Shown piece after piece: positions 12,972 through 42,337 of a DNA stretch of 58,169 nt (its first letter is position 1; every line of letters begins with the position of its first letter). The notes below the pieces were generated by a model. It saw only the letters and a program-made list of their open reading frames with translations, had not been told where the DNA came from and searched no databases. This stretch comes from a virus: the IMG/VR virus record IMGVR_UViG_3300002461_000235, positions 1 through 58,169 of that record. One strand, 5' to 3'. Both the position numbers and the translations under genes were made by a program.

Positions 12972-15900
12972 TCTATATCAAATGACTGATGCCTATGAGG
13001 AGCCTGTATCAGCAGCTTTGCCGGTAGAGCAGCCTTATCTAGGTGTTCCTGCTGATGCTGATGGTATTAGGCGAGTATATATTAATAAGCCAGATGAAAT
13101 AGTACAGCCTAAGCCAAATGAAATCATTACTGCTAATCGTCCTGAACCTAGGCCAGAGCCGGGAATATTTGATAATTTAGGTATGGCTGGAGTACAGGAT
13201 AAGTCCGGTAAATCAGAAAGTGAACTTTTAAAGAAACTGTTTGGTTTAGGTGGTAAAGAAAGACATCAGCTTTGGCCTGAGAAAATTGTTAGAGAAGGCT
13301 TAAAAGCCGCTGGCGAAGTCATGTCAACTGATACTTTATCGCAATTGGGCTTGCGCAGAGAGGATTTAACTGATATACCTGCCCCTTCAGGCCCAACTAA
13401 GGATAGCACTTGGCTAGGTAAAATCCTAGGTGCTGCTCCTGTTGCGGCGCAACCGGGAGATGATTTGATAGAAAAAGCTCAGGCCATATCAGCATTAGCG
13501 GGTAGTGGCGGTATTGCTGGAACTGGCGCTGAGGCTGGAGTAGCTTTGGGAGCCGGGCCTTCTTTGCGTCCTGCTTTAAAATATAAAGAGAAGCTGTATA
13601 AAGGTAAAGAAGGCCAGCAGCATATGGATGTGATTCCTAATGAATTATACCCTGAGTTTCAAAAAATGGCTATGTCTGGTGAAGATATTAGTCATTACAA
13701 CTTTGGCTTTGTTAATGATAAAGGTCAATTCTTAACTAGAGATAAAGCATTAGAGTATGCTATTAATACTGGCTTGATTGATCCTCAAGCTGGCAAATAT
13801 GGAGCTTTGACTAGTACTCTTATGGCTGATAGTTCTAAGCCGGGTACGGCTATTGAGGCTATGGCGCAAGCTGGAAAAGCCAATTTAGATAACGCTTGGT
13901 GGCATGGCTCAGCTAGTGGAGATTTGCGCGGTGGTTCAAGCGGCTTGCATTTGGGAACTAAGAAAGCAGCTACTCAAGCATTAGAAGCAAGGATAGGTAT
14001 CCCTGCTGACGGTAAAGGGTGGACCGGAAATAGAGAATATGGAAAAACTCTATTGGCTGGACAAGATACTTTAAAGAAAATGGACCCTAAAGGTTATAAT
14101 TTAACGGGTCATAATGTAAACGTACCAAAAGAAGATTATTATCCTACTGAAATTAAAAAATATCCAGACGGCACAGAAATGCCGATGACAGTTAAACCGG
14201 AAGTAGCTCCTTATAAATTAAAAGGTAGCATGACGAATACTACCAATAATCCTTATGACGATTTTAAAGCTAATGGTTATATGAGAGGACAATTAAAAAG
14301 AGGGATTGCTAAAAACGGCTACTATTACAAAAATGTAGGAGAAGATAGCGGCTCTATATCAATGACTGTCCCTAATGGCAATCACATTGAAAAAATTTTG
14401 CTAGCTGACAGCTCAAAAGAAGGAGCAGCTTTGCAGTCTAATAAGCCTACCTTCTATTCAGCAGTAGAGCATAATCTATCAGCTATCCCACAATCTAAAA
14501 TGACTGGTGATCAGTGGCTAGGCACTCTGGCAAATAAGCCGGGAGTAAAGGGAGAAGAATTAGACTGGACAGGGTTGAAGGGCTTCCTTGAGGAGAATAA
14601 AGGTAAACCTGTTACTAAGGCTCAGATTGAGGAGCATTTGGCTAATAATAAGGTGGAGTTGAAGGAGGTTACAAAAGATAAAACTTTTAAAAGTGAGCCT
14701 GAGTTTGGAGAGCCTAAAATAAATGGTGAAACTAAATATCATTCCTACCAGCTTCCCGGTGGTGAAAACTATAGGGAAATGCTGTTGACGTTGCCTAATA
14801 AGCCTTTACCTGTAGATCAATTTGCTAAACAATTATATGACCAGTGGGGCAAAAAAGGTGGCGGTACAGAATGGGAAAAATTAAGTGCTGCTGAGAGGCA
14901 GCCTTATTTAGATAATGCTCAAAAGAACGGTTATCTAAATACTGGTGAAAATAATTACAAATCCTCTCATTGGGATGAGCCAAACATTCTAGCTCATGTT
15001 AGAATGAATGATAGGAATATTGACGGTAAGAAGTCTCTGCATCTGGAGGAGATACAGAGTGACTGGCATCAGCAGGGGAGGGATAAGGGATATCGTCCTG
15101 AGCAAGAAAAGCAAATGGCTAATCTTGTAAAACAACGCGATGAATTGCAAAAGGAAGCTTCAACATTAGCTCCTAGCGATGCTCGCTATAAGGAAATTTA
15201 TAAAGAGTTGCCTACAATTCAAACTAAAATTAATGAAATTGGTTCTGGTGGAGTTGGCGTTCCAGACGCACCATTTAAAAAATCATGGCATGAGCTAGCT
15301 TTAAAGCGTATGCTTAGGGAAGCGGCTGAGAAGGGTTATGATAGATTAAGCTGGACGCCCGGTGAAGCTCAGGCTGCTAGGTATGATTTGAGTAAGAGTG
15401 TGGATAAGATTGCTGTTCCCATGGTCAATCCTAATGGCACTCGCTCAGTTAGGATTGATGCTAAGAATGATACTCCATTCAAACTCATGATTAATAAGGA
15501 TGGTAAAGTAGACGGAATGGGATCAGCCAACCAATTTAGCGGAAAACCTCTTAGTGATGTTGTGGGCAAGGAGATGGCTGAAAAAATTATGAAGCTTGAG
15601 AAGCCTCATGAGTTTTCAGGAGAAGGTTTAAAAATTGGCGGTGAAGGCATGAAAGGCTTCTATGACCAAATCATTCCTAAGGCGTTAGAGAAGCTTGGTA
15701 AGGAGCATGGAGTTAAGGTAAAAGTTGCTAATTTAAAAGCAGCTCCTAAATACGAAACTAAAAATCCTTTACTTAATAAAAAAGGTAAGGAAATAGTTAG
15801 CGTTTATAAAGATGGTACATTTATGGCCGATATGGAGAAGTCTGAAGCAGCTCATTACATTAAAACTAAATCGGTTTCTGATAAACCTGAAATAGCTTTC

Positions 15901-16020
15901 TACATTGACATTCCACAATCTTTAAAAGATACAGCCATGCATAAAGGCTTTCCGCTTTTCTCAAATGGCTACATGCTGGTGCCAGTGCAAGGCAATCCGT
16001 TTCAACAGGACCAAAAATGA
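12964..16020 (+). CDS. large (1018 aa) virion-associated multidomain protein, possibly polyvalent or injected type
   Basis: Translationally coupled to the portal (8-nt overlap). No domain firmly recognised; notable motifs are WWHGSASGDLRG and LHLEEIQSDWHQQG. Confidence 0.55.
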   Translation: MPNLYQMTDAYEEPVSAALPVEQPYLGVPADADGIRRVYINKPDEIVQPKPNEIITANRPEPRPEPGIFDNLGMAGVQDKSGKSESELLKKLFGLGGKERHQLWPEKIVREGLKAAGEVMSTDTLSQLGLRREDLTDIPAPSGPTKDSTWLGKILGAAPVAAQPGDDLIEKAQAISALAGSGGIAGTGAEAGVALGAGPSLRPALKYKEKLYKGKEGQQHMDVIPNELYPEFQKMAMSGEDISHYNFGFVNDKGQFLTRDKALEYAINTGLIDPQAGKYGALTSTLMADSSKPGTAIEAMAQAGKANLDNAWWHGSASGDLRGGSSGLHLGTKKAATQALEARIGIPADGKGWTGNREYGKTLLAGQDTLKKMDPKGYNLTGHNVNVPKEDYYPTEIKKYPDGTEMPMTVKPEVAPYKLKGSMTNTTNNPYDDFKANGYMRGQLKRGIAKNGYYYKNVGEDSGSISMTVPNGNHIEKILLADSSKEGAALQSNKPTFYSAVEHNLSAIPQSKMTGDQWLGTLANKPGVKGEELDWTGLKGFLEENKGKPVTKAQIEEHLANNKVELKEVTKDKTFKSEPEFGEPKINGETKYHSYQLPGGENYREMLLTLPNKPLPVDQFAKQLYDQWGKKGGGTEWEKLSAAERQPYLDNAQKNGYLNTGENNYKSSHWDEPNILAHVRMNDRNIDGKKSLHLEEIQSDWHQQGRDKGYRPEQEKQMANLVKQRDELQKEASTLAPSDARYKEIYKELPTIQTKINEIGSGGVGVPDAPFKKSWHELALKRMLREAAEKGYDRLSWTPGEAQAARYDLSKSVDKIAVPMVNPNGTRSVRIDAKNDTPFKLMINKDGKVDGMGSANQFSGKPLSDVVGKEMAEKIMKLEKPHEFSGEGLKIGGEGMKGFYDQIIPKALEKLGKEHGVKVKVANLKAAPKYETKNPLLNKKGKEIVSVYKDGTFMADMEKSEAAHYIKTKSVSDKPEIAFYIDIPQSLKDTAMHKGFPLFSNGYMLVPVQGNPFQQDQK

Positions 16021-18393: not shown

Positions 18394-18930
18394 ATGATTA
18401 ATTCTGGCATATATTTAATTTTGAATGCTGATACTAAAAAGTATTACATAGGCTCTGCTATAAATTTTAAAACTAGATTAGAAAATCACTTAAGAAGCTT
18501 AAGAGCTGGATATCATCCTAATAAATATCTTCAAGCATCTTGGAATAAACATGGAGAGGAAGCTTTTACTTTTCATATTTTAGAAAGAGTTGTTGATAAG
18601 GATGCGCTAATTGAACGTGAGCAATATTGGATGGACCTAACCAATTGTTGTAAGACTGGATATAATTTAGCTCCGAAAGCAGGTAATAATTTAGGTTTTA
18701 AATTTAGTGAAGAAAGCATAGCTAGGTTATCTAAAGCTATGACTGGAAAGAAATATAAAAAATACCCCAAAAGAAAATCGAGAGTTTTGACTATAGAAGC
18801 TAGAGCTGAATTATCAGCTAGCATATCTAGACGGCAGTTGGGAAAGAAGCTCCCTGAGAGCCATAAGAAAAATATAGCGGAAGGTATGAAAAAGTCCCAC
18901 GCTTTTAGAAAATCCCTCTTGACGACTTGA
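18394..18930 (+). CDS. free-standing GIY-YIG homing endonuclease
   Basis: GIYLILN...YYIGSA...R...H motifs plus NUMOD3-like repeats (GFKFSEESIARLSKAMTGKK). Confidence 0.85.
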   Translation: MINSGIYLILNADTKKYYIGSAINFKTRLENHLRSLRAGYHPNKYLQASWNKHGEEAFTFHILERVVDKDALIEREQYWMDLTNCCKTGYNLAPKAGNNLGFKFSEESIARLSKAMTGKKYKKYPKRKSRVLTIEARAELSASISRRQLGKKLPESHKKNIAEGMKKSHAFRKSLLTT

Positions 18931-19092
18931 TAATTTTAAAGAATATAGTCGCAAAACGTTTCTTGGTTTCGTATAAACCCTGATTTTTAAACAGCCTTAG
19001 TCCTGTCTGGCTATTGATTGCTTGTTAAAATTGCAGCCTCAAGCATCTGCTATTTCATCATCAATCAATAATTCATTCCATTGAGGGCTAAC

Positions 19093-20337
19093 ATGGCTAA
19101 TTCTTATCTCACTATCGATATGATTACTGCTGAAGCAGTAATGTTGTTTAAGAATAGTAACCTGTTCATTATGAACATGGATACGCAGTATGACAAATCT
19201 TTCGCCATTGATGGCGCAAAGATTGGTGATACTCTTCGCATTCGTCTGCCGTCTGACTTTGTTGTTACTGATGGTCCTGCGATGCAGCTTCAGGACAATA
19301 CTCAGCAGTACACCAGCCTCACTGTTTCTTCTCAGAAAAACGTTGCTACGCCGTATAGCACGGCTGAGCGTACCATGAGCATTGATAACTATTCTGAGCT
19401 GGTAGTAGCTCCGATGGTTAGCGCTCTTTGCGGTAAGGTTGCCTCCACCATTATGCGCGGCTCTGAAGGTGGCGTTTGCAACCTTGTTAGCAATGTTGAT
19501 GGCGCTGGTACTATCATCTCTCCGACTATGGATCAGTTTACGGGAGCTAACGCTGTTCTTGATGATCAGGGAGCTTCTATGCTTGATCGTCGCTGCGTTA
19601 ATGATCCTACTACTGATGCACGTACAGTTAGCTCTCTTGCTGGCTTACTTAACCCGGCTACTGAAATCTCAGCTCAGTTTCGCTCAGGTATGATGAAGTC
19701 TGGTTTAGGTTTTGATCGTTTCTTCCGCGATCAAACTGTGATTAAGCATACTACTGGTACTTTCTCTGCTGGCGGTACTATTAATGGTGGTGGTCAGACT
19801 ACCGGAACTGGTGGCGGTAACATTACCGTTAATGCTATCACTGGCACCTTTAAGAAGGGTGACATTATTGCGATTGCTGGCGTTAATGCCGTCAATCGCG
19901 TTACCAAGGACAGCCTTGGTACATTGCGTCAGTTCGTTATTACTGCTGATGTTGCTACCGCTGCTACCGTCCTGCCGATTTACCCCGGCTTGATTGGTCC
20001 TGTTGGTGGTGTTGCTGGTGGTGCGGATCAGCAGTATCAGACTGTTGATGCTCTGCCCCTAAATGGCGCGGCTGTTGCTTTAGTTACTCCTGCTTCTTCT
20101 GTGTATCGCAAGTCTCTTGCCTACACTCAGAAGGCTGTTACTATGGCTTCTGCTGACTTAGTTATGCCTAAGAAGGCAGTTGAGGAAGCGGCTCGCACCA
20201 GCTTTGATGGTGTCTCTATGCGTATGTTAACTGACTATCTCCCGCTGACGGATCAGTTAGCTACCCGTTTGGATGTGTTATTCGGGTTCAAATATATCCG
20301 CCCCGAGTGGCTCTGCGTTATCGCAGATAAAGTATAA
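19093..20337 (+). CDS. major capsid protein, P22-coat-like
   Basis: GAGGG RBS before the ATG at 19093. The segment TFKKGDIIAIAGVNAV...FVITADV parallels P22 gp5 GMKRGDKISFAGVKFL...FSVVRVV. Confidence 0.8.
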   Translation: MANSYLTIDMITAEAVMLFKNSNLFIMNMDTQYDKSFAIDGAKIGDTLRIRLPSDFVVTDGPAMQLQDNTQQYTSLTVSSQKNVATPYSTAERTMSIDNYSELVVAPMVSALCGKVASTIMRGSEGGVCNLVSNVDGAGTIISPTMDQFTGANAVLDDQGASMLDRRCVNDPTTDARTVSSLAGLLNPATEISAQFRSGMMKSGLGFDRFFRDQTVIKHTTGTFSAGGTINGGGQTTGTGGGNITVNAITGTFKKGDIIAIAGVNAVNRVTKDSLGTLRQFVITADVATAATVLPIYPGLIGPVGGVAGGADQQYQTVDALPLNGAAVALVTPASSVYRKSLAYTQKAVTMASADLVMPKKAVEEAARTSFDGVSMRMLTDYLPLTDQLATRLDVLFGFKYIRPEWLCVIADKV

Positions 20338-20439: not shown

Positions 20440-20898
20440 ATGAAATGCAAAGTAGACGGTTGCGAGCGGCAAGCTTACGGTAAAGGTTGGTGCCGTCCTC
20501 ATTGGTGGAGGATGCATAAATACGGTAGACTAGAAAAAGTCATAGGACTAATAAAAGGAAATTGTACAGTAGAAGGCTGTAACGAAAAAATCAAAGGTTT
20601 GGGACTTTGTAAAAATCACTATCAGTCTTTTAAATTATATGGTGTGCATCCTAATGAATATAATGAAAAATTAAAGAAACAGAACTATGTTTGCGCTATT
20701 TGTGAGGAGCCTGAGACTGCACTATTTAGAAATATAGAAGGCAAAGTTAAGAAATTATCTCAGGATCATTGCCATACTACTGGAAAAATAAGAGACTTGC
20801 TTTGCACCAGATGTAATCATTTTATTGGTAGAGTTAATGAAAGTGTGGAGCTTTTAGAAAAAATGAAACAATATTTAATTAGACACAAGGAAAATTAA
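20440..20898 (+). CDS. endonuclease VII / HNH-type homing endonuclease
   Basis: CAICEEP...LSQDHCHTTGKIRDLLCTRCNHFIG matches the Endonuclease_7 pattern; N-terminal CxxH-type repeats. Confidence 0.8.
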   Translation: MKCKVDGCERQAYGKGWCRPHWWRMHKYGRLEKVIGLIKGNCTVEGCNEKIKGLGLCKNHYQSFKLYGVHPNEYNEKLKKQNYVCAICEEPETALFRNIEGKVKKLSQDHCHTTGKIRDLLCTRCNHFIGRVNESVELLEKMKQYLIRHKEN

Positions 20899-21188: not shown

Positions 21189-22160
21189 ATGACAACAGCC
21201 CGCGAATTTATCGAATTTGCGCTAAGAGAAGCTGGAGTAGTTGGCTTAGGTCAAACTGCCAATCCTCAAGATATCAATGGAGGGTTTAGGCTTCTTCATA
21301 TGATGTTGGCTGGCTGGCAGAAACAGCGTTGGTTGGTTCCTAATCTTATTGATACTGCTGCAATTGGTAATGGTTCAATTTCCAATCGTATTGGGCCGGG
21401 ACAATATTATAACGCGCAACGTCCTGATAAAATTCAATCTGCTTATTTTAAACAAATAGCAGCCAGTAATGAAGTCAGCTATCCTTTAATTCCAATTTGG
21501 AGTTATGAGGATTACGTTAAAATCCAAATGAAGAATTTGGAGAGCTGGCCTAGCTATTACTTTTACGACGCTGCGTTTCCTTATGGTAATGTTTTTATTT
21601 GGCCTATCCCCACATCTGATTATGAAATTCATTTAATTACCAAAGGTCCTATTAATTTTACTATGCAATTGCAAGCTGGTGAAATCATTTCTGGTGGAGC
21701 TGGCTATACTAGTGGTTTATATCCTGCTGTTCCGTTTATCAATGTGAGCAGCTTAGGCGGTGATGGTACAGCAGACGTTACTGTAGTTGGTGGAATAGTG
21801 ACAGCAGTTACTATTGCTGCTGGAGGAGATGGTTATAAAATCAATGACATTTTATCGTTTGATACAACCATTATTGGCGCTGGTGCTGGTATATTGTGGC
21901 GAGTGAATAACGTAACTGACAGCCTTGATGCTGTGTTTAATATGCCTCCTGAATATGAGGAAGCTATTCATTATAATTTATGCGTTAGGCTTGTAGCTCA
22001 CTACCAGTATGCTCCTAATCCAGTTCAAGGAAAGCTTGCTGTGCTCGCTCTAAATCGTCTTAAAAATTCCAATTCTCAAATCTCTAAGCTTCAAATGCCG
22101 GGAAGCTTACGATTTGGAAAAGGTAACAGCTTTTACATTTATAACGCTGATGCATACTAA
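21189..22160 (+). CDS. P22 gp4-like head-to-tail adaptor with an inserted Gly-rich domain
   Basis: N-terminus (ALREAGVVG...MMLAGW) and C-terminus (MPGSLRFGKGNSF) parallel P22 gp4 (ALRKLGV...MMAEW, RMPTGSGNSF). Confidence 0.55.
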   Translation: MTTAREFIEFALREAGVVGLGQTANPQDINGGFRLLHMMLAGWQKQRWLVPNLIDTAAIGNGSISNRIGPGQYYNAQRPDKIQSAYFKQIAASNEVSYPLIPIWSYEDYVKIQMKNLESWPSYYFYDAAFPYGNVFIWPIPTSDYEIHLITKGPINFTMQLQAGEIISGGAGYTSGLYPAVPFINVSSLGGDGTADVTVVGGIVTAVTIAAGGDGYKINDILSFDTTIIGAGAGILWRVNNVTDSLDAVFNMPPEYEEAIHYNLCVRLVAHYQYAPNPVQGKLAVLALNRLKNSNSQISKLQMPGSLRFGKGNSFYIYNADAY

Positions 22161-23624
22161 ATGGTTAAATCTAGTACATCAAGAATAGAGCTAATAAGTT
22201 CTGCTTACGATGGCAAAAGTATAATTGCGTCTGGACAGGAATGCGTTAATTTATATCCTGAAATAAATCAGCGCGATCCTCAAGCTCCAGCTAAAGTGAC
22301 TTATTATCCTACTCCCGGTACAGTGCTGTACGCTACACCTACTGTAGCTGATAACTCTAGAGGCTGCTACCGTACTAGTTTAGGTACTGCATTTTATGTA
22401 GTTAGACAAAATGTTTATTTTCTCAGCTCTACTGGAGTTTTAATTCTTATTGGGGCTATAGCAGATAGACAGAGCCAGATTAAATTTGCTGATAATGGTA
22501 TTGTCTGCGTAATGGTAGATGGTTTAAATGGATATGTGATAGACCTAGCTACTAATGCTTTGGGTATTATAACTGATCCTAATTTCTATGGAGCTGATTA
22601 TGTAGCTTTATTGGATACGTTTTTTATTTTTAATAATCCTGGGACAAATCAATTTTATATTAGTACGTCAAATGCTAGCTATTTATTGCTTACTACAGTT
22701 GGCGCGTTTGATCCATTAGACATTGCGGCCAAATCAGGCTTCAGTGACCCTATTGTGGGCATTGTTGCTGTACATCGTGAGCTTCAATTAATTGGAGCGT
22801 TGACTACTGAAACTTGGATTGGTACTGGAGCTGCTGATTTTTACTTTCAACAGCAGCAAGGCGCTTATATCAATCATGGTTGCGCAGCTCAATTTTCTAT
22901 AGCAACTCTAGATGTTTTAGCATTCTTCATTATGCAGGATCAGCAAGGAAGTGGAATTGTAGTACAATTACAAGGATACGATGTATCTGAAATTTCCACT
23001 CCTCGTATTGTCAATATGATTAGAAGCTATGCTAGTTTTGAAGATGCTATTGGCTTCTGTTTTCAACTCGATGGGCACGCTTTTTATGCGTTAGTATTTC
23101 CTACTGCTAGTAAAGGCTTGGTATATGATATTGGATTTAAACAATGGTTAGAGTGGAATTGGAATGACGAAAATGGAAATTTCTTAAGACCTAGGCTCAA
23201 TTGCGCTATGTTTGTTAATGGTAAGAATGTTGGTGGTGATTGGGAGAATGGAAAACTTTTAGAATTAGATATTAATGCTTATACTGATGAAGGTACTCCT
23301 ATTGTTAGAGTTAGAACTTTTCCTCATATGACTGCTGATGGTAAAAAGATTAGCTATCTTAATTTTCAAGCTGATATTGAGCCGGGAACGATCACTGATC
23401 AAGAGGAGGACCCTCAAATAAGTTTAAGTTGGTCGGATGATAAAGGAAGGACTTACGGCAATCCAATTATGCAGAGTATGGGAAAAACTGGAGAATATAC
23501 CATAGTTCCTTCTTGGAATAATCTAGGACAAGCCAGAGATAGGGTATTTAAATTATCTTGGTCTATTGATGCTGAGACAGCATTAAACGGTGGATTTATG
23601 ACCGCTAAGGCTTCTGCTAAATGA
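22161..23624 (+). CDS. P22 gp10-like tail hub / DNA stabilisation protein
   Basis: Size and the segment TPRIVNMIRSYASFEDAIGFCFQLDGHAFYALVFP parallel P22 gp10 IEKIIRSYTAEEMATGVMETLRFDSHELLIIHLP. Confidence 0.6.
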   Translation: MVKSSTSRIELISSAYDGKSIIASGQECVNLYPEINQRDPQAPAKVTYYPTPGTVLYATPTVADNSRGCYRTSLGTAFYVVRQNVYFLSSTGVLILIGAIADRQSQIKFADNGIVCVMVDGLNGYVIDLATNALGIITDPNFYGADYVALLDTFFIFNNPGTNQFYISTSNASYLLLTTVGAFDPLDIAAKSGFSDPIVGIVAVHRELQLIGALTTETWIGTGAADFYFQQQQGAYINHGCAAQFSIATLDVLAFFIMQDQQGSGIVVQLQGYDVSEISTPRIVNMIRSYASFEDAIGFCFQLDGHAFYALVFPTASKGLVYDIGFKQWLEWNWNDENGNFLRPRLNCAMFVNGKNVGGDWENGKLLELDINAYTDEGTPIVRVRTFPHMTADGKKISYLNFQADIEPGTITDQEEDPQISLSWSDDKGRTYGNPIMQSMGKTGEYTIVPSWNNLGQARDRVFKLSWSIDAETALNGGFMTAKASAK

Positions 23625-24443: not shown

Positions 24444-25205
24444 ATGATTATGAGCAGGGTCAAATTTGAATTTGAGTTTATAGACCCTTGCTTGTGCAAT
24501 GCTTGGGTAGCAACGGCAGTTATAGGATCAGCGGTTATTGGGGCTGGTGCTACAATATGGGGAGCTGATAAAGCCGCTGATGCTCAAAAAGACGCAGCAG
24601 CGCAATCTGCTGGCATATCGCGCGAAATGTATGAAAAGACTAGAGGGGATTTAACCCCTTACCGCGTTGTTGGTGAAGATGCTAGCGCTAGAATGGGAGT
24701 TAGGCTTAGTGAATTAACTGATCCTATTAGCGTAAACCCTGATGATTTTTTAGGTAGTGATTATTACAAATTCTTAGAAAAAGAAGGCAATAGAGCTGTA
24801 ACTAATTCGGCTGCTGCTAGAGGCTTGGCTAGCTCTGGAGCAGCATTAAAAGGTGCTGCTGCATTTGCTAAAGGACTAAACAGTCAAGAATGGAAATCTA
24901 ATTTTGAAATGCAGCGAGCTAATAAAGGAGATGCGTATACTAGATTAAAAGGACTAATCGATACTGGACATACGGCCGCTGCTGGTACGGGTACGGCTGG
25001 CACTGCTTCTGCCGCTCAACAAGGTAGCGCTGCTATTGGAGCTGGTAATGCTGGAGCCGCAGCAGCCAATGCTACTGGTGGAGCTTTGAGCACTATGGCC
25101 GGTAATATTGGTGGATATGCGATGTATCAAGGAATGTACGGTAATTCTGGTAGTGGTGGAATTACTTATGGTGGACCTAGCGGTCCTACTGCGTTTAGAG
25201 CTTAG
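24444..25205 (+). CDS. internal virion / ejection-type protein with an N-terminal TM helix and an A/G-rich tail
   Basis: Position between the tail hub and fibre, plus composition. Confidence 0.5.
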   Translation: MIMSRVKFEFEFIDPCLCNAWVATAVIGSAVIGAGATIWGADKAADAQKDAAAQSAGISREMYEKTRGDLTPYRVVGEDASARMGVRLSELTDPISVNPDDFLGSDYYKFLEKEGNRAVTNSAAARGLASSGAALKGAAAFAKGLNSQEWKSNFEMQRANKGDAYTRLKGLIDTGHTAAAGTGTAGTASAAQQGSAAIGAGNAGAAAANATGGALSTMAGNIGGYAMYQGMYGNSGSGGITYGGPSGPTAFRA

Positions 25206-25216
25206 GATATTTTTAA

Positions 25217-26593
25217 ATGGCTGAAATTGATGTTTCTTCATATCCTAAAGCAGGAATGCCAGTATCTCCTTTAGATACTGCGGCTAAAGTTGGCGCATTG
25301 CAGCAGCAAAAGTTACAAATCGATGCTGCTAAGATGGACCAAGCTAACAAAGCTTTAGGGTTTATGACTAGAGCTATGGGCAGTCTTGGTCCTAATGCGA
25401 CCAAAGAGGAATATGCTGCTGTAGCACAAAACGCAGTACAGCAAGGCTTAGTGCCTCAGCAACAATTAAATTCTTATATGGATAGGCTTCAAAAAGCTCC
25501 TACTCCTCAGGCTTTCTATAATGAATTTATTACTGCTGCTTCTGAAACTCAAAAGCAGATGGACTATCATTTAGGACAAAGGCAAGATGTTGGAGATGGT
25601 CAGACTGTCACTCCTGCTGTAACCAGCGTTAAGCCGGGATTTGGTGTTAGACCTGTAGGATTGCCAGTGCAGCAGCAGGCTCCTCCGACTACGCCAACAA
25701 TGGACCCTGTTTCAGGACAGCCGCGATTATTAGGCCCTCAGCCAGCAGCTATTCCTGAAGGGGCTGCTCCTGCCAATACCGGCTTCCCCGGTCAGTTTAA
25801 ACCGGCTGGCGCGCGTCCTATGCCTGTTGAGCCTATGGCTCCTCCAGCTCGCACAACCGGCCCTACAGGGCCTACCGTGAGAACGGATAGCGGGCCTGAT
25901 ACTTTTGATGGTCGCTTTGCAGCATCGTTTCCTAAGCCTGCTGGCCCTGCTACTGGACCTACGCCGCTATTCGAGGAAGGCAAAAAAGCGTATACTGAAG
26001 ATCAGAGAAATGCAGGACAACGAGCTTTTGCAATCAAGCCTGCTATTCAGGCTTTAAAATTAATGCCGGGACTAGCTACAGGTCCGGGTACTGATCAATT
26101 CACCAATTTAGTTGCTGCTGCTAAAGCTTGGGGTATTGTCGATACCAAAGCTGAAAATGACCCTACAGTGTTAAGGCAGGAATTAAACAAAAAACTTGCT
26201 CAGTATGTGGGCAGCAGTCCTATTGGACAACGCTCAGATGCAGCTCAGACGTTAGCTGAAGCAGGTTCTCCTAATCCTAAGGTGCAAGTTACTCAAGCTT
26301 TACAGAATTTAACTAGAGATGCCATTGCTCTAGATAGGGTTCAAATTTTAAAGCCTCAAGCTTTTAAAACTCAGAAGTTTGATGATTATATTAAGCATGG
26401 TGGCACTTTTCCAACATCAGTAGACGAGAAAGCTCTAACTTTAGATTTAATGGATGAAAAAGAAAGAGATAAATTAGTAGCTAAAATGAAGTTAGATTAT
26501 CGCAATGGTGATAATGTTGCTAAGAAAAAAGCAACTCGTTTCTTTGAAACTGTTGATTTAGCTAAAAATGCAAAAATTTATGACGTGGATTAA
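25217..26593 (+). CDS. internal virion / ejection-type protein with a Pro-rich centre
   Basis: Position and composition. Confidence 0.5.
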   Translation: MAEIDVSSYPKAGMPVSPLDTAAKVGALQQQKLQIDAAKMDQANKALGFMTRAMGSLGPNATKEEYAAVAQNAVQQGLVPQQQLNSYMDRLQKAPTPQAFYNEFITAASETQKQMDYHLGQRQDVGDGQTVTPAVTSVKPGFGVRPVGLPVQQQAPPTTPTMDPVSGQPRLLGPQPAAIPEGAAPANTGFPGQFKPAGARPMPVEPMAPPARTTGPTGPTVRTDSGPDTFDGRFAASFPKPAGPATGPTPLFEEGKKAYTEDQRNAGQRAFAIKPAIQALKLMPGLATGPGTDQFTNLVAAAKAWGIVDTKAENDPTVLRQELNKKLAQYVGSSPIGQRSDAAQTLAEAGSPNPKVQVTQALQNLTRDAIALDRVQILKPQAFKTQKFDDYIKHGGTFPTSVDEKALTLDLMDEKERDKLVAKMKLDYRNGDNVAKKKATRFFETVDLAKNAKIYDVD

Positions 26594-26595
26594 AA

Positions 26596-28542
26596 ATGGA
26601 TTTAGATAGCATTCTTTCTGAATATAAAGGTACTGCCAAGTCTAAGCCTTCTGGTTTGGATATTGATGCTATTTTGTCTGATTTTAAAGCATCACCAGCA
26701 GAAGCTTTACCAAAAAATATTAAAAAGGTAATCATAAATACTGATCCTAGACCACCTATCTCTGGAATTTCTAAAGACGCTTCTGATGAATTAAATCAGA
26801 CTAGAACTGAGCGTTTTGGTGTAGAAAATCCTAGGCGCAGTCTGCCTACAACTAATATTCAAGAAAGCATTATCAAAGATTATACTGCTGGAAAGGAAAT
26901 GGCGTCTAGTGGCATAAGCGATATAGCTAGCAGTAATCCTGCTAGTGGTGTAGGTAAAACAGCATTAGGTGTTTTCCAAATGGGTACTGCTCCTATTACT
27001 GGAGCAGTAGAAGGAGGTATTGTAACTCCTATTGCTGATATCACTGGTAGCAAATCTATTGGTGATAAAGCCGGCATGGTCGTTAGTACAGCTATTCCTG
27101 TTGTTCCCGGTGGAGCAGCAATTGTTAAAACTATGCCTAAGAACAAAGCTTTCCGTAACCTTGTAGAAAATATTGGTCCTGAAAATCTTCCTGCTACTGT
27201 AGCGGCGATGAAAGCTAATCCTCGCTTAGGCCCTGCTGATTTATCTCCTAGAGTGCTACAGGATGCTCAGCATTTGTTTACAAGTGATGGTCCTCAGATA
27301 GATTACCTTGCTAAAACATCAGCAGCTCGAATGGCTAGCGCTAAAGATAGCGTCAATACAGCATTTGATGCTTCCATGGGAGCTACTGTTAACGCAGCTC
27401 AGAAGATTGATGAATTAAAGAAAGCTGCTCAGGAAATTGGAAAGAAGAATATTGAGCCTGTTTTAGCTGCTAAGCCTCATACAGATATTACTAGCCTAAT
27501 TAAAGACATTGATACTGCTATTGGTCATCCTGCTATGAAAGCAATCAAAGAAGGTAAAGCTCCTCCTTTGCCCTTAACTCCTTATCAGCGTGAATTGCTG
27601 GACGTTAGAAATAAGCTGCGTAGTACAGATTGGCCTGACCGTTCTCAAATGTTTGCCTACACTGATCAGCTACACGATGCTCAAATAGCATTGCGGGAAA
27701 GCGCAAGCGCTCTGTCTAAAAGTGCTACCGGCTCTGAGCGTCACACAGGAAAGCAGTTGTTAGAGTTTCGCGAGAAGATGAAAGATGCTGTTGGTAAAGA
27801 ATACAAAGAAGCATTAGCTAAATATGCAGGTCAAAAGAAAGTTGAAGAAGCCTTTCATTATGGGCATGACAAGATTTTAAAAAACAGTGTGAATGATTTA
27901 GAAAATGATCCGTCATTTTTTAAGAAGTGGGTTGATAGCTCTTCGCGTAAACCGGGAGAATTAGAAGCTGCGAGAGAAGGAGCTAGGCTTAGAATTAATG
28001 CTGAGATTAATGGTACTCGCTCTGCTGCAACTAATCCGGCTAGTCGCGGTACTGCTATTGGGCAAAATGATTTTAATGCTCAGCGTTTAGAAATTTTGCT
28101 TGGTAAGGATGAAGCTGAAAAGCTTTTAACCAAGCTTGAGCATACCCGCATGGAAGCTAATACGCATAATAAGATTGTTGAGGGTAGTCAAACGGCTATG
28201 CGAAGTGCATCTAAATCACAGTTTACTTTACCATACAAAACTCAAGTCATGAAAAGCACTCCTGCCGTCGCTGCTGCTGAAGCGTCTAGTTATTTTATGG
28301 GAGGTATGCCGGGAGCTGGCGCAGCGATGCTTGGCGTAGCTAAAGCTGGTGCGATGGTAAAGGACGCAATTAGCCTGAAGCTGGCTAAGGAGCATAACGC
28401 TCAGTATGCAAAGCTCGCATTACCAACTGAAGGCCCTAGCCGTGACGCTCTAATCGTGGCTCTTGAGGCTCAAATCCCCGGTCCCAAGCAATCCTTGTTG
28501 ACTAGAGGGGCTGGCACTCTTTCTAGGCTTGTAGGACCATAA
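26596..28542 (+). CDS. internal virion / ejection-type protein (648 aa)
   Basis: Position and size. Confidence 0.5.
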   Translation: MDLDSILSEYKGTAKSKPSGLDIDAILSDFKASPAEALPKNIKKVIINTDPRPPISGISKDASDELNQTRTERFGVENPRRSLPTTNIQESIIKDYTAGKEMASSGISDIASSNPASGVGKTALGVFQMGTAPITGAVEGGIVTPIADITGSKSIGDKAGMVVSTAIPVVPGGAAIVKTMPKNKAFRNLVENIGPENLPATVAAMKANPRLGPADLSPRVLQDAQHLFTSDGPQIDYLAKTSAARMASAKDSVNTAFDASMGATVNAAQKIDELKKAAQEIGKKNIEPVLAAKPHTDITSLIKDIDTAIGHPAMKAIKEGKAPPLPLTPYQRELLDVRNKLRSTDWPDRSQMFAYTDQLHDAQIALRESASALSKSATGSERHTGKQLLEFREKMKDAVGKEYKEALAKYAGQKKVEEAFHYGHDKILKNSVNDLENDPSFFKKWVDSSSRKPGELEAAREGARLRINAEINGTRSAATNPASRGTAIGQNDFNAQRLEILLGKDEAEKLLTKLEHTRMEANTHNKIVEGSQTAMRSASKSQFTLPYKTQVMKSTPAVAAAEASSYFMGGMPGAGAAMLGVAKAGAMVKDAISLKLAKEHNAQYAKLALPTEGPSRDALIVALEAQIPGPKQSLLTRGAGTLSRLVGP

Positions 28543-28663
28543 TTTAAATTGTAGAACGATAGGGTCTAAGCAGGTCCATTTTACGTAAGCTAAAATTATC
28601 AGTAGTGTGGGCATCCAAATAAGTCTGCGAAATTTAAAAATTATAGTTAGCAGGAAAAGCAAA

Positions 28664-31384
28664 ATGAATAATTCCATTTTTAAAACTTTCTTATTATCTT
28701 TGTGCATTATTGCTAACACAAATTTAGCTTACGCGCAAACAGCAAGTATTTTGCCTCCTGCTAAAACTCAGTTTCTTGATAATTCAGCAAAGCCTTTAAC
28801 CTCAGGAACGGTAGATTTTTATATTCCGTCTACTACCACTCGTAAAACTACATGGCAAGATGCAGCTAAAACTACGCCTAATGCAAATCCTGTTGTTTTG
28901 GATGCTGGTGGTAGAGGTATAATTTTAGGAGATGGTGCTTATCGCCAAGTTGTTAAAGATAGGCTTGGCAATATAATTTGGGATGCAGTTACTTCTTCTA
29001 CAGGCTCAAGTGGTGGAGGAGGGCCTACCGCTACAGGTGATGGTGATTTAGTTGGAACAATTAAACCTTGGGCTGGAATGTCAGCCCCAAATCAATATGC
29101 GTTCACTTATGGGCAAGAGCTTAATAGAACTACTTATGCAGTTCTGTTTGCTGCCATTACTTCTTCTCAGCCTGTTTTTTGTAATTCAGCATCTCCAATT
29201 TTAAGTGGTTTAACTAGCACTGATAATTTTTGGATTGGTATGAGCGTTGAGGTATCTTGTGTAGCTGCTGGTTTTTCTACAGTAATTTCTAAAACATCAA
29301 CCTCAGTAACATTAGCAACTAATGCTAATGTTACGACTAATACTAATGCTATATTTTTTCCTTGGGGTAGGGGTAATGGCTCTACTACTTTTAATTTACC
29401 AGATTTTAGAGGTTTTGCTATTGCTGGTAATAACATGATGGGAGGAGTAGCTAGCTCTATTTTGACTACTACTTATTTTGGAGCTACTAATCCAAATTCA
29501 TCTGGTGCGGCTGGTGGTTCGCAATCAAATAGTGTCATACTAACTCATACTCACGGTATAACTGATCCGGGGCATACTCATGTTGAAACTGCGTCTGCTG
29601 CCGGAGGAGCATCTAATTACATAGTACATACCAATAATAGTGCTAGTGGTGTTGTCACTAATATGACGCATTCTACTGCTTCTGCTACAACTGGTATAAT
29701 TGTTAGTAATGCTGGTAGCGCTGCTGCACATAGTATTGTTCAACCTACCAAAACTTCAAATTATATTATTAAAATTACTCCAGATGCTAATTCCGCTACT
29801 GCTTCTGGTGTTACTAGTATTCAGGGAATGACAGGTGATATTACTTGTGGTGCTAACATCACTTGTACTGGAAACGTCATTTCAATATCAATTCCTCCCG
29901 GTGGAGTAACTTCTTTAGATGGCGCAACGGGAGCAATTGCTGTTGGTGTTGGTTCTGCTAAAGTCGTAAGTGGTGTTTTAACTACTAATGTTTTAGCATC
30001 TAGAGCTTACGCAGCTACTTTAGATTTATCTAGCTATACTTCAATAAAAACATTAGGCTACGCAACTCCCGGTGATGGTGGGGGAGCTACTTTTGTTAAA
30101 GTGTCTGGAGTTCCGTTTAAAGATACTTACATTCTAACTGGTACTATTGCTGCTGGAGCAGGTTATACTAACGGCACTTATTTAGGTGTCCCAATGGGAG
30201 GCGGAGTAGGTATAGGATGTATTGGAAAAGTAACAGTAGCAGGAGGAGTTGTAACTGCGGTTGATCTTACTGGAGGATTTTGTAATGGTTATGCAGTAGG
30301 CAACGTTTTAACTCCTCTCAATTCCGCTGTAGGTGGTACTGGTGGTGGTGCAACGTACACTGTTAGTACTATCAGCTCTCCAACAGGTTCTTTTACTGAT
30401 GCTGTTGGCGCTCTATGGCAATATGTAGTCGATGAAGGTGGCGCTCCTAATGGGCGTCAATTTGGCATCAAAGCGGATTGGGCTGGTACTGATGGGACAG
30501 CTACAAATGATTTAGCTTCATTTAAGTCAGCCATGGCGTTTATGTCTACTACAAATGGTTCTGCTTCTGCTATCATTAATGGTGGCACATTCTTAATGCC
30601 TAAAGGAGCAGCCTACTTTTGTGCTAGCCCTTCTCAATTCGCTACATTACAAATTCCTAATGGTGTTATTATTAAAGGTGCTGGGGTATATGGCGGTACA
30701 ACACTTAAGCAATGCACTGTAGCTGATAGCGCTGAGCATTTTGTATCTCTCTGCGATCCTAATTCGCAGTTTGGGCAATTCGGTTGTCGTCTGGAAGATG
30801 TTGCCTTAATTATGACAGGTAGTTCTGCATCCGGTACATCAGCTATTTACTCAAATAGTGGACAGCAGTTTCCTTTAATTACCAATGTGTATATTCAGCC
30901 AGTAGGACGCCAATGTATAAAATATGAAATAGGTAAAGGAGGAGCATCTAACGCTATTTTTGAAAAATTTGATTGTGAGGTTGCTGACACTACTACTAAT
31001 GTTAATTTTTCAGGAAACTCGTCAGGAACTCAAATTATAATTCGTGATGCTGTATTTGGTTGTGCTCCTAGCCTTTGTGCTCTTGGTATTTATGCTGTAA
31101 ATATGCAAGCTGGAAACTTTATTATTCAAAATACGCATATTGAGCAACACAGAGATGGGATTAATGTAGCTACTAGTTCAGCAAGCCAACTTTCAAAATT
31201 AAGCAATTTGACTATTGTTAGCGGTTGTGTCAATGGGATAACTTTACAATCTACTAACCCAAACAACACTGTGTTGGTTGAAAATGTAGAAAGTAGTTGT
31301 TCTACTGCTACAGTTTTAAATGGTCATACCGCTGGTTCAAATGTGACTGGTAATATTTTAGCGCAACGTGTATTTAACCCATAG
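28664..31384 (+). CDS. tail fibre/spike: signal-peptide-like N-terminus, fibre N-domain, tail-collar domain, HxH-rich region, C-terminal beta-helix-like domain
   Basis: Collar motif FNLPDFRGFAIAG, HTHGITDPGHTHVE, and N-domain FLDNSAKPLTSGTVDFYIPSTTTRKTTW..NPVVLDAGGRG. Confidence 0.8.
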   Translation: MNNSIFKTFLLSLCIIANTNLAYAQTASILPPAKTQFLDNSAKPLTSGTVDFYIPSTTTRKTTWQDAAKTTPNANPVVLDAGGRGIILGDGAYRQVVKDRLGNIIWDAVTSSTGSSGGGGPTATGDGDLVGTIKPWAGMSAPNQYAFTYGQELNRTTYAVLFAAITSSQPVFCNSASPILSGLTSTDNFWIGMSVEVSCVAAGFSTVISKTSTSVTLATNANVTTNTNAIFFPWGRGNGSTTFNLPDFRGFAIAGNNMMGGVASSILTTTYFGATNPNSSGAAGGSQSNSVILTHTHGITDPGHTHVETASAAGGASNYIVHTNNSASGVVTNMTHSTASATTGIIVSNAGSAAAHSIVQPTKTSNYIIKITPDANSATASGVTSIQGMTGDITCGANITCTGNVISISIPPGGVTSLDGATGAIAVGVGSAKVVSGVLTTNVLASRAYAATLDLSSYTSIKTLGYATPGDGGGATFVKVSGVPFKDTYILTGTIAAGAGYTNGTYLGVPMGGGVGIGCIGKVTVAGGVVTAVDLTGGFCNGYAVGNVLTPLNSAVGGTGGGATYTVSTISSPTGSFTDAVGALWQYVVDEGGAPNGRQFGIKADWAGTDGTATNDLASFKSAMAFMSTTNGSASAIINGGTFLMPKGAAYFCASPSQFATLQIPNGVIIKGAGVYGGTTLKQCTVADSAEHFVSLCDPNSQFGQFGCRLEDVALIMTGSSASGTSAIYSNSGQQFPLITNVYIQPVGRQCIKYEIGKGGASNAIFEKFDCEVADTTTNVNFSGNSSGTQIIIRDAVFGCAPSLCALGIYAVNMQAGNFIIQNTHIEQHRDGINVATSSASQLSKLSNLTIVSGCVNGITLQSTNPNNTVLVENVESSCSTATVLNGHTAGSNVTGNILAQRVFNP

Positions 31385-31393
31385 AGGTATCAA

Positions 31394-32002
31394 ATGATTG
31401 ACCGTAAGAAATTTTTTGATGGCGTTAAACAGCAACCTTTTTCTGGTAAGCTAGCTAAAGGCCAAGTCCAAGGAATGTCAGCAATACTAGATGAATGGGA
31501 GCGACGCAAGCTTACTGACTTGCGATGGTTAGCATATATGTTGGGTACTACCAAATGGGAGACTGCCCACACTATGACTCCAAACAAAGAAGCTGGAGGC
31601 AATGCATATTATACTCGTATGTATGACCCTCTTGGTTCTCGATCTGCACTAGCCAAACGAAACGGCAATACAACTCCCGGTGATGGAGCTAGATATTGTG
31701 GACGCGGCTTTGTGCAATTAACTTGGAAGAATAACTACGCTGCGATGACTAAACTTTTAAAGGCTGCTGGAATTGATGCTGATTTGGTTAAAAATCCAGA
31801 CTTAGCTATGCAGGTGGATATTGCTTCTTTTGTGATGTTTGAGGGAATGATTAGAGGAACGTTTACTGGAAAGAAATTATTAAATTATTTTAACGGGAGC
31901 ATTACCGATTGGCTTAACGCTCGCAGGATTATCAACGGAACTGATAAAATGGTAGAAATTGCCGGAATATCTAAGCAATTCTACGCTGATTTAATAAATT
32001 AA
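31394..32002 (+). CDS. endolysin, glycoside hydrolase family 19-like
   Basis: Motif YCGRGFVQLTWKNNY (GH19 GRGxxQLTxxxNY). Confidence 0.75.
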   Translation: MIDRKKFFDGVKQQPFSGKLAKGQVQGMSAILDEWERRKLTDLRWLAYMLGTTKWETAHTMTPNKEAGGNAYYTRMYDPLGSRSALAKRNGNTTPGDGARYCGRGFVQLTWKNNYAAMTKLLKAAGIDADLVKNPDLAMQVDIASFVMFEGMIRGTFTGKKLLNYFNGSITDWLNARRIINGTDKMVEIAGISKQFYADLIN

Positions 32003-32060: not shown

Positions 32061-32504
32061 ATGGCTTTTTCTACTGAAACTGTTGGCAGATTATTAGCTT
32101 CAGGCCGTAACTATATCAGCACGGCAGTTGGATTTATTGGTGGTGTGGGCATTGTCTCTGCTGCTAATTCTAAAGGTATGATAGACGCCATTAATGAAAT
32201 CTTCACTGGATTAGGTATGGTGTTCAGTGGAGCTACTTCATTGTGGAATGTTTTACTTGTAGCATTTCCTATTATTGGTGGTATCATGGCTCGCTACGCT
32301 AGCAAGTCAGCTAAGGTTGACAGTCAAGCTGCTTCTATTGTGGAAGCTCTTAAAGACCCCAATACGCCAGTTTCTTTAGAAGCAAAAGCATCAGTATTAG
32401 AAGCTGTAGTAAATATTGATGAAGTTAAAACTCCTGCTATAAAAGTTGCTGATCCTGTTTTAGCTAATATGGTTCCTTCTGATAAAGTGGTAGCAGTTAA
32501 ATGA
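32061..32504 (+). CDS. holin-like membrane protein
   Basis: Two hydrophobic helices; adjacent to the endolysin. Confidence 0.4.
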   Translation: MAFSTETVGRLLASGRNYISTAVGFIGGVGIVSAANSKGMIDAINEIFTGLGMVFSGATSLWNVLLVAFPIIGGIMARYASKSAKVDSQAASIVEALKDPNTPVSLEAKASVLEAVVNIDEVKTPAIKVADPVLANMVPSDKVVAVK

Positions 32505-32929
32505 AAAAAATTATAGCAATATCATTTACAGCATTAGCTCTTGCAGGTTGCGTAGGAGAATTTGGTAGCCGTGTTGCTGCCGTAAAGGAAACTATTGCTG
32601 CTGTATCCAATTTCACTGTCACTCAAGGCCAAGTTGATACAGCTCGCACGGCTTACAATGGAGCTGTGTTAGCCCCATTGCGTCGCTATGCCCTTCTGCC
32701 TCGTTGCAAGACAGGACAAACCATCAGCATTAACGTTCCTTGCCATGATAGGCTTATGCTCGTAAAGCTTAGAGATGCTGATAAAGTTGTAGAAAAAGGA
32801 TTTAAAGAAACTCAACGCAAAATTGACACTGGTGATAATTCTGGTGCATCTTTAGCTTATGATACTCTCATGATTGCTATTGATACAGCCAAAGCTCTTA
32901 TTGCTAAAACTGGAGTTGAAGTATTATGA
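32501..32929 (+). CDS. lipoprotein (possible outer-membrane spanin component)
   Basis: Lipobox MKKIIAISFTALALAGC. Confidence 0.6.
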   Translation: MKKIIAISFTALALAGCVGEFGSRVAAVKETIAAVSNFTVTQGQVDTARTAYNGAVLAPLRRYALLPRCKTGQTISINVPCHDRLMLVKLRDADKVVEKGFKETQRKIDTGDNSGASLAYDTLMIAIDTAKALIAKTGVEVL

Positions 32930-33144
32930 TTGATGTTAACACGATCAAGCTTGCTTTGGCTTTAGCTACTACCGCCTATCAATTAGGTAAGGATGCAGCT
33001 CCTTACATTAGATTGGCTTATGAAATTCAGTTTAAAAATAAAATTTTGACGATTGAGGAACGAAAAGCGATGGAAGCGCAGGAACAATCTTGGCGTGAGG
33101 AGATTGACGCTATCATAGCGGCTGATGAAACTGCGACCGATTAA
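32926..33144 (+). CDS. hypothetical lysis-cassette protein
   Basis: ORF-track ORF, overlapping its neighbours. Confidence 0.5.
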   Translation: MIDVNTIKLALALATTAYQLGKDAAPYIRLAYEIQFKNKILTIEERKAMEAQEQSWREEIDAIIAADETATD

Positions 33145-33410
33145 TGGACCAAGAATTACTTAAGCTAGGAATAGCTGGTCTTATTTGTGTAGTCCTTTGG
33201 ATTATGCTTATGAAATCTGAAAAACGCGAAGAAAAAAAAGACATTCGTATTCAAATGCTAGAAAATCAATTGATTGAAAGCTATGATGAAAGAATACAAG
33301 CTGCTGATAGAATAGCTGGAGCTATTCATGATAGTGCTTCTGCTGCTAATAATGCCGCTAAAGCTTTAGAAATATTAACAACTGAGGTTAAGGCTAATAG
33401 TAATGGATAA
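33144..33410 (+). CDS. N-terminal TM plus coiled-coil protein (i-spanin-like)
   Basis: LLKLGIAGLICVVLWIMLM followed by charged helical sequence. Confidence 0.4.
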   Translation: MDQELLKLGIAGLICVVLWIMLMKSEKREEKKDIRIQMLENQLIESYDERIQAADRIAGAIHDSASAANNAAKALEILTTEVKANSNG

Positions 33411-41773: not shown

Positions 41774-42337
41774 TTAAGTTAAGTTGTTCCATCTTGTATT
41801 TGCAGCTTTAGACATTTTAGCTCTATTTACATCCTTAGCTTCTCCATTAAATCTAGCCTTCATTGCTTTTGATATCTTAGCTTTAGTTTCATCAGAAGAA
41901 GCTTTTCTATTCTTAGGGTAGTTAGTTTTTCTTCCAGTCTGAATTAGACTTATTTTGCTTTTGGTTTCTTGTGTGTGTTTTCTTCCTAATTGCTTAATCC
42001 TCATTTTTTCTATAGTAGCTTCAGAATGCTTTCTGCCTGTCATTCCGCTACCAACTTCACATTTATTGTAGCCAAATTCTTCTTCAGTAGCTCTATGCTT
42101 GGCTATATAATATGCTTCTGTTTCGTACAATTTTTGAACGTCTACCAGCTCAATTATAATGAAGTCAAAAGCCTCAGCTCCATATAAATTGTAAGCTCGC
42201 TGAAGATGTTCATTATGATGAATATTTTTGGTAAGTCTAGTAAAATGTTCTGATCTACGCTTTAAAAGATAAACCGCGCTACCGATATATAATTTTAAAC
42301 TTATTTTATTAAGAATAAAATATATACCGGAGCGCAT
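41774..42337 (-). CDS. free-standing GIY-YIG homing endonuclease (paralog of 18394-18930)
   Basis: GIYFILN...LYIGSA...R..H motifs; NUMOD3-like repeats GRKHSEATIEKM and GRKHTQETKSKI. Confidence 0.85.
   Translation of the reverse strand: MRSGIYFILNKISLKLYIGSAVYLLKRRSEHFTRLTKNIHHNEHLQRAYNLYGAEAFDFIIIELVDVQKLYETEAYYIAKHRATEEEFGYNKCEVGSGMTGRKHSEATIEKMRIKQLGRKHTQETKSKISLIQTGRKTNYPKNRKASSDETKAKISKAMKARFNGEAKDVNRAKMSKAANTRWNNLT

Follow-up and report, generated by a model that had tools for sequence, protein, structure and literature searches.

A Sec-type signal peptide and paired cysteines in a P22-type tailspike point to a probable periplasmic route of tailspike maturation

In this study, a tailspike gene was analysed in IMGVR_UViG_3300002461_000235, the IMG/VR virus record of an uncultured, P22-like phage. 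The record is complete at 58,169 bases, its two ends overlapping by 94 nt, and as a whole it is referred to below as the window. The open reading frame (ORF) in question (28664-31384, + strand) encodes 906 aa and, judged by its domains, is a P22-type tailspike. It is apparent from comparison with relatives that the leader at its N-terminus is translated and conserved and has the design of a signal peptide. It seems fairly probable that the protein is a real substrate of Sec and signal peptidase I, that it is oxidised in the periplasm, and that it is joined to tailless heads once the inner membrane has been opened by the holin. Export, the site of cleavage, disulfide formation and late docking are what we infer from these comparisons; of these, export has good support, and the data favour simple export of the entire tailspike pool.

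The tailspike leader has the design of a signal peptide

Read from ATG 28664, the tailspike N-terminus is MNNSIFKTFLLSLCIIANTNLAYA/QTAS. The first 24 codons (28664-28735, + strand) comprise an n-region (M1-K7), a hydrophobic core (T8-A17) and a c-region (N18-A24). The core is uninterrupted over residues 8-17, with a mean Kyte-Doolittle value of 2.6. The n-region is basic through K7, and K or R is found early in nearly all of the leaders of homologues. In the c-region, NTNLAYA, the predicted site A22-Y23-A24/Q25 has Ala at both -3 and -1, with no Pro from -3 to +1. These features bear out the cleavable-looking Sec leader of the A-x-A/Q type that a preliminary description of this DNA had put forward. 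One correction is required: the leader is 24 rather than 25 aa long and the predicted mature end is Q25 rather than Q26, the interval given earlier having included the Q25 codon. The automated cleavage-site picker used in this study often took a second site four residues downstream (T-A-S/I), and it was not used to assign the exact site.

Other classes of N-terminal signal are not matched by the leader. It contains no twin-arginine (Tat) motif and is without any Arg. C14 is preceded by L-S-L, with Leu at -1, so that no lipobox is formed, and this Cys is present in only 73 of the 118 full-length homologues described below. The core of about 10 residues, made up of Leu, Ile and Phe, gives way to polar residues and then to an A-x-A site, unlike a signal-anchor-release (SAR) segment, which is a weakly hydrophobic, uncleaved transmembrane stretch of about 20 residues rich in Gly, Ala and Ser.

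The start codon at 28664 and its ribosome-binding site, both of which had been noted previously, can be read directly. The Shine-Dalgarno-like AGGAAA lies at 28652-28657 (+ strand), and its AGGA ends 8 nt 5' of the ATG; AGGA-type motifs precede 18 of 43 genes in the window, versus 12.5% of random positions. An in-frame TTG at codon 30 (28751), encoding the Leu of an I-L-P motif, is without a ribosome-binding site.

Distribution of the leader among relatives

A search of 5.8 billion proteins yielded 529 relatives, and the first 70 residues were inspected in the best 120 of these. The leader was found in all 118 of the full-length homologues in that set. The remaining two proteins (P0004 and P0005) match only the C-terminal half, and each has a signal peptide of its own. 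Many of the 118 homologues are encoded on contigs of 57-60 kb, and they therefore represent a clade of phages like that of the window. Among IMG/VR loci of this clade, the leader was present in 44 of 44, with an ATG 5' of the basic and hydrophobic segments in every one. An in-frame start at the Leu of the I-L-P motif (L30) was observed in eight of these loci, the window included, and is absent from the other 36. The preliminary description had named a start downstream of the hydrophobic segment, and orthologues devoid of the leader, as grounds for doubt; the former is impossible in most relatives, and the comparison shows the leader in all 118 homologues and all 44 loci.

Pooled Nei-Gojobori estimates from 24 distinct sequences gave a dN/dS of 0.27 for the leader, compared with 0.165 for the adjoining N-domain; the value of 0.27 indicates that the leader is coding and under purifying selection. 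A crude scan of all ORFs in the window flagged, among real genes, only the tailspike, three proteins of a small cassette described below, one lipoprotein and a few membrane proteins. Since so few genes were flagged, and since the leader is kept in every clade homologue, its occurrence on the tailspike is more than chance. Codons 4-9 (S-I-F-K-T-F, 28673-28690) are near-invariant, even synonymously, in an alignment of 12 clade loci; a possible reason is selection for an initiation region that is A/U-rich and free of structure. An RNA switch around the start codon was considered and rejected, the predicted fold being no better than those of shuffled sequences (z +0.96).

Leaders unrelated in sequence to that of the window were found outside the clade, in at least 21 IMG/VR loci with G+C contents from 0.39 to 0.66, and also on prophages in a Methylobacterium persicinum isolate, a Hyphomicrobiales metagenome-assembled genome (MAG) and three Acidobacteriota MAGs. 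What these divergent leaders share is a design, in which between one and four basic residues are combined with a hydrophobic stretch, and positions -3 and -1 are occupied by small residues. They total about 15-32 residues and end 2-5 residues before a conserved L-L-P motif. Overall, a -3/-1 site was present in 68 of 69 leader-bearing loci. The leader pattern is thus found in many uncultured phages and is not a curiosity of one genome.

Nine of nine cultured phages that were checked have no leader, and their tailspikes start at the predicted cleavage point. In Pseudomonas phage PAE2 the initiator Met leads directly into the LLP motif; Rhodoferax phage P26218 and Ralstonia phage P4282 start one codon ahead of the N-domain match; and six more, from Vibrio, Thalassomonas, Shewanella, Xanthomonas, Pseudoalteromonas and Pseudanabaena, have the same start. 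Leaderless uncultured relatives likewise begin with Met at this point. Because leaderless relatives start there, a cut at the predicted site would recreate an ordinary tailspike N-terminus, and the earlier observation that the conserved N-domain follows directly upon the predicted cleavage site is upheld. When leader presence was mapped on a tree of 100 N-domains, nine changes were needed, and well-supported branches compel at least two of these, which indicates that leaders have been gained or lost repeatedly.

Two homologues (P0102 and P0115) had been called from internal Met or Ile codons within the leader. Gene callers sometimes truncate such leaders, and automated surveys could therefore miss signal peptides.

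The prophage of M. persicinum NBRC 103628 (locus L089) encodes a tail-collar fibre with a signal peptide (2941-4287), in this case with cleavage predicted before Ala. The gene lies downstream of a member of ejection-protein family PHROG 5880, the same family as in the window. It is followed by an ORF of 660 aa (4232-6214) in which a second signal peptide, with the end AFA/Q, starts at an internal Met. This prophage represents a culturable system in which the question of export could be addressed.

Cysteine content and pairing of the mature tailspike

Sixteen Cys are present in the mature part of the window tailspike, at residues 173, 199, 395, 401, 519, 540, 653, 684, 697, 708, 751, 771, 800, 805, 855 and 879; the 17th, C14, is within the leader. 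The number of mature Cys is even in 114 of 117 homologues (binomial p 3e-30), with counts ranging from 6 to 22 and with widely different C-terminal parts. Both C173 and C199 were found in 118 of 118 homologues.

Covariation was examined in an alignment of 21 C-terminal domains. Six pairs of Cys columns (395/401, 403/424, 519/540, 516/543, 602/619 and 653/684) were identical in their co-presence and co-absence, and a further pair, 751/771, was near-identical. Cys 697, 800 and 855 each have a shifting partner: 705 or 708, 805 or 807, and 879 or 880, respectively.

Leaderless relatives present a different picture. Their median Cys density is 0.65%, versus 1.26% in leader-bearing proteins (Mann-Whitney p 2e-4), and among those with any Cys, six have an even number and 16 an odd number, so that no bias towards even counts is apparent. 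Among complete leader-bearing proteins from outside the clade, the count is even in 11 of 13. Within the loci of the clade, 39 of 52 neighbouring ORFs contain no Cys. Parity and pairing of this kind are the pattern of disulfide-bonded exported proteins, and the Cys of the mature tailspike would accordingly be expected to form disulfides.

Several large proteins encoded in the same late region of the window, namely a 1018-aa protein 3' of the portal gene (12964-16020) and two large ejection-type proteins (25217-28542), have no Cys at all, versus 1.9% in the tailspike.

Domain organisation of the tailspike and its upstream region

The predicted mature N-terminus, Q25, opens a P22-type particle-binding domain of about residues 25-125 (28736-29038, + strand), which was recognised by tblastn and by a match in the PDB. 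In the tblastn searches, residues from about 27 to 110 matched the N-domains of Ralstonia P4282, Pseudomonas PAE2 and Rhodoferax P26218, with E values from 6e-13 to 2e-12 for P4282 and PAE2. Residue 13 of PDB entry 9vyg ('Tail spike protein') aligned with residue 37 of the query (E 0.0016), in accord with the leaderless starts of the cultured phages. The alignment of N-domains showed that the invariant core of the family is retained in the window protein. The domain is single-copy in the window genome, in which no candidate for a leaderless tailspike was found.

Next is a tail-collar region (29054-29800, + strand; PF07484, PHROG 8763/523), which scores 47 bits against Pfam PF07484 with a cut-off of 24 and which contains the motifs FNLPDFRGF and HxH (HTHG...GHTH) as well as C173 and C199. 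The remainder of the gene (29801-31384, + strand, including the stop codon) specifies residues 380-906, a predicted right-handed beta-helix containing 14 Cys in seven covarying pairs. The AF2 model of these residues has a pLDDT of 80 and a pTM of 0.79. With Foldseek it matched the AlgE4 epimerase, GH87 and GH55 glucanases and the Sf6, CBA120 and Depo32 tailspikes, at a probability of 1.00 and with low TM-scores of 0.2-0.4. The tail-collar motif, the HxH region and the C-terminal beta-helix noted in the preliminary description are all accounted for by these results. The role of receptor-binding protein assigned to the product is likewise upheld.

A related beta-helix was encountered in another P22-like phage with a G+C content of 58% (locus L006, 7966-11815). 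In that phage a leaderless tailspike of 476 aa is followed by a 202-aa protein and then by a 604-aa protein which bears a signal peptide of its own (AEA/Q) and shares 68% identity with the beta-helix half of the window tailspike. The exported beta-helix module moves between phages of very different G+C content.

The tailspike gene is preceded by an intergenic region of 121 nt (28543-28663, + strand), the sole sizeable gap in the late operon. It contains blocks conserved in the clade, including ATTGTGGGCATCCA and CGAAATTTAAAAA, and a terminator-like hairpin (28562-28577). Upstream of the tailspike gene, neither a promoter of the sigma-70 type nor any significant RNA structure was detected. The gene may constitute a separate, and separately timed, transcription unit.

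Other predicted exported proteins, lysis genes and genome context

The window has a G+C content of about 40%, and its late region is in the gene order of P22. It includes the small terminase (6083-6754), the large terminase (8984-10441), the portal (10602-12971), a scaffold gene, the P22-type coat (19081-20337), a tail hub consisting of a gp4-like adaptor (Ad3) and a gp10-like protein (Hc3) (21189-23624, + strand; PHROG 637 and PHROG 578, E 2.5e-91), and three ejection-type proteins (24444-28542). According to the leader scan, both hub proteins are without a leader. The tailspike ORF comes directly after the ejection proteins, which is the canonical position of a tailspike gene.

Between the two terminase genes are three small genes whose products are also predicted to be exported (all + strand). 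The first (6801-7424) has a leader ending SSA/Q and four Cys in its mature part; the second (7959-8333) has a leader ending AEA/Q and two Cys; and the third (8317-8982) has a leader ending ANA/Q and four Cys. It is apparent that the tailspike shares its type of leader with these proteins, as had been stated, and that Gln occupies position +1 in four of the four predicted exported proteins of the window. A/Q sites were observed in Methylobacterium and Acidobacteriota prophages also, and because the Methylobacterium prophage shows A/Q too, Gln at +1 is probably no guide to the host in this case. A Bacteroidota host, as might be deduced from Gln at +1, was considered and dropped; the structural and replication relatives infect Pseudomonadota.

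Downstream of the tailspike is a GH19-type endolysin gene (31394-32002, + strand; PF00182, PHROG 181), the product of which has a soluble N-terminus with neither a signal nor a SAR segment. A soluble endolysin implies a canonical, large-hole holin. Next come a membrane protein that is a holin candidate by topology only (32061-32504, + strand) and a lipoprotein of 142 aa with the lipobox LAGC (32501-32929, + strand), which has two further Cys and no C-terminal membrane segment and is longer than the usual o-spanins. The fourth gene encodes a type II membrane protein with a coiled coil (33144-33410, + strand), i-spanin-like, again by topology only. No phage-encoded Dsb protein, thioredoxin or signal peptidase was found among 20 further window proteins scanned against Pfam.

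Judged by portal, hub, coat and DNA polymerase, the nearest cultured phages have Pseudomonas, Acetobacter, Rhodoferax, Xanthomonas and Acinetobacter hosts, with 35-48% identity. The host of the window phage is probably a diderm bacterium. No near-identical DNA was found in the phage collection, and a search of 185,579 species genomes with clade-specific patterns revealed no member of the clade; a narrower alignment, searched against the species genomes, recovered distant relatives only. Two public sequencing runs contain the window sequence; both are of DNA, from one metagenome study of activated carbon, and no RNA run is among them.

Three genes of homing-endonuclease type were also observed. 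A GIY-YIG gene (18394-18930) splits the head module between scaffold and coat, an HNH/endonuclease VII gene (20440-20898) lies 3' of the coat gene, and a GIY-YIG/NUMOD3 gene is present at 41774-42337 on the minus strand.

Proposed maturation route and alternatives

In the textbook account, tailed phages are assembled entirely in the cytoplasm. For the window phage, the following route is envisaged. The precursor would cross the inner membrane via Sec, and signal peptidase I would cut after A24. This would leave Q25, possibly cyclised to pyroglutamate, at what is almost the position of the initiator Met in leaderless tailspikes. Oxidation by host Dsb, folding and trimerisation would then take place in the periplasm, with the formation of eight disulfide bonds, and the heads, portal, gp4/gp10-like hub and needle would be built in the cytoplasm. 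The two pools would stay apart until, late in infection's final stage, the inner membrane is opened by the holin; the spikes would then dock onto the hub through their conserved N-domain. Heads are barred from the periplasm and folded spikes are barred from returning, and docking would therefore have to follow permeabilisation of the inner membrane. As the N-domain is single-copy, keeps the invariant residues and is strongly constrained, it should still be able to dock on the leaderless hub. A side benefit of this route could be that an active, glycan-cutting beta-helix in the periplasm strips receptor from the infected cell.

In P22, addition of the tailspike is the last step of assembly and is spontaneous. 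Israel, Anderson and Levine reportedly observed in 1967 that P22 spikes mixed with tailless heads in vitro attach spontaneously, and canonical holins are said, by Dewey et al. in 2010, to make very large lesions.

Several considerations weigh against this route. Docking at the time of lysis would dilute both partners and could be costly in terms of burst efficiency. The parity counts are not phylogenetically independent, many of the homologues having domains in common. The excess of Cys is modest in leader-bearing proteins from outside the clade (0.99% vs 0.65%, p 0.036). Finally, the diderm envelope is itself deduced, from relatives and from the lysis genes.

Among the alternatives, one in which the protein is exported but is not part of the virion appears improbable, albeit the least so. 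The product would then act as a free glycan-degrading enzyme, periplasmic or secreted, and strip receptor or matrix, with consequences for superinfection exclusion or progeny release; receptor binding by the particle would fall to some other protein. The beta-helix fold does match polysaccharide-modifying enzymes, and in locus L006 a separate protein with a signal peptide, sharing 68% identity with the C-terminal half, is encoded 3' of a leaderless tailspike. A free enzyme would not, however, be expected to keep a particle-binding N-domain with its invariant core, at a dN/dS of 0.165 and as the only copy in the genome, nor to be encoded in the canonical tailspike position after the ejection proteins in a genome with no leaderless tailspike candidate. 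The preliminary description had suggested a dual-fate protein, virion-bound and exported. An unexported or internally started pool would in that case build virions in the cytoplasm, and an exported pool would act in the envelope. Incomplete export of an 880-residue protein is conceivable, and an in-frame TTG is available at codon 30 (28751) in the window, with a start there in seven other loci. Of the 44 loci, however, 36 lack that start, and in the window it is not preceded by a ribosome-binding site, so that the internal start lends the idea no support. The disulfide pairs conserved in the family could not be formed, moreover, by a protein that stays in the cytoplasm; a dual fate is accordingly judged unlikely.

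Membrane tethering, also raised previously, would take the form of an uncleaved signal anchor: the spike would be held at the inner membrane, on its periplasmic side, and freed, SAR-like, by the holin-driven collapse of the membrane potential. Such an arrangement would keep spikes near the site where heads emerge, and SAR and signal-peptide endolysins do use Sec-dependent N-terminal segments in this way (PMC6116005). The hydrophobic core of only about 10 residues is nonetheless too short to span a bilayer and, with the polar N-T-N and A-x-A that follow, is of the cleaved type; the divergent leaders, too, are short, at about 15-32 residues, and have the -3/-1 site in 68 of 69 loci. We regard an anchor as no likelier than a dual fate. 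Least probable is a leader that is not secretory at all, whether a docking or chaperoning helix that acts in the cytoplasm, as the preliminary description had also considered, or a mis-called start. In its favour are the cytoplasmic assembly of virions in all tailed phages studied and the near-invariance of codons 4-9 at synonymous sites, which implies some conservation at the nucleotide level. Against it, leaders of unrelated sequence keep only the generic features of signal peptides, the basic n-region predicts translocation of the mature part, paired Cys are hard to explain in a reducing cytoplasm, and the start is conserved in all clade loci.

There is perhaps an even chance that two-compartment particles exist in a large and widespread set of tailed phages, comprising the clade of about 58 kb and several unrelated lineages that include the Methylobacterium prophages; in such particles, heads and hub would be cytoplasmic and disulfide-bonded spikes periplasmic, the final step following the breach made by the holin. 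If export of the tailspike with docking at lysis is correct, docking after holin triggering would constitute a new step in phage assembly. SecYEG, LepB and DsbA/B would be host factors required for infectivity, and hence possible routes to resistance. The presence of an active glycan-cutting enzyme in the infected periplasm would bear on superinfection exclusion and on the release of progeny. Periplasmic oxidation would also explain Cys-rich receptor-binding proteins in metagenomes and their poor folding when expressed in the cytoplasm, a matter of relevance to work on depolymerases and to phage engineering.

Comparison with known systems

The window tailspike resembles the P22-type tailspikes (P22 gp9, Sf6, 9vyg, Xanthomonas PBR31, PAE2 and P26218) in its N-domain, its gene position and its beta-helical C-terminal part, and the genome resembles P22-type systems in its P22-like portal and coat and its gp4-like and gp10-like hub. 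It differs in that the nine cultured relatives are without a leader, whereas the window spike has a signal peptide of 24 residues and eight Cys pairs; the leaderless relatives have few Cys, often odd in number. No tailed-phage case was found in the literature on signal-peptide-bearing or disulfide-bearing tailspikes and tail fibres, and the Bcep781-type phages that were looked at gave no lead to an exported tailspike.

A receptor-binding virion protein with a Sec signal peptide and periplasmic disulfides is known in filamentous Ff phages, namely pIII. Ff virions are, however, assembled at the envelope and extruded through it, whereas the window phage is a DNA-packaging, lytic, P22-like tailed phage whose heads are built in the cytoplasm. 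In tailed phages, the host Sec system is used by signal-peptide and SAR endolysins and by spanins (e.g. fOg44 Lys44 and P1 Lyz; PMC6116005). As is proposed here for the tailspike, these have an N-terminal signal and act outside the cytoplasm, but they are lysis proteins and not virion parts, and the window protein carries a particle-docking domain.

Exported proteins with the architecture of tailspikes have been described in bacteria: WceF of Pantoea stewartii (PDB 6tgf) is a secreted tailspike-like protein with an export signal (PMC7949094), and fibre proteins of Bdellovibrio combine phage-tailspike architecture with export signals (PMC10769870). WceF is among the Foldseek matches of the window beta-helix. 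Unlike the protein described here, both are cellular proteins and not parts of a virion.

Finally, the Bacteroidetes Q-rule (PMC5837995), which concerns Bacteroidota hosts with glutaminyl cyclase, is followed by signal-peptide proteins that Porphyromonas gingivalis phages encode (PMC10367356). These substrates of signal peptidase I have Gln at +1, as do the four predicted exported proteins of the window. They differ in being function-unassigned and in belonging to Bacteroidota prophages, whereas the closest cultured relatives of the window phage infect Pseudomonadota. In comparison with all of these systems, what appears to be new here is the proposed maturation route, the tailspike itself being, by its sequence, of the ordinary P22 type.

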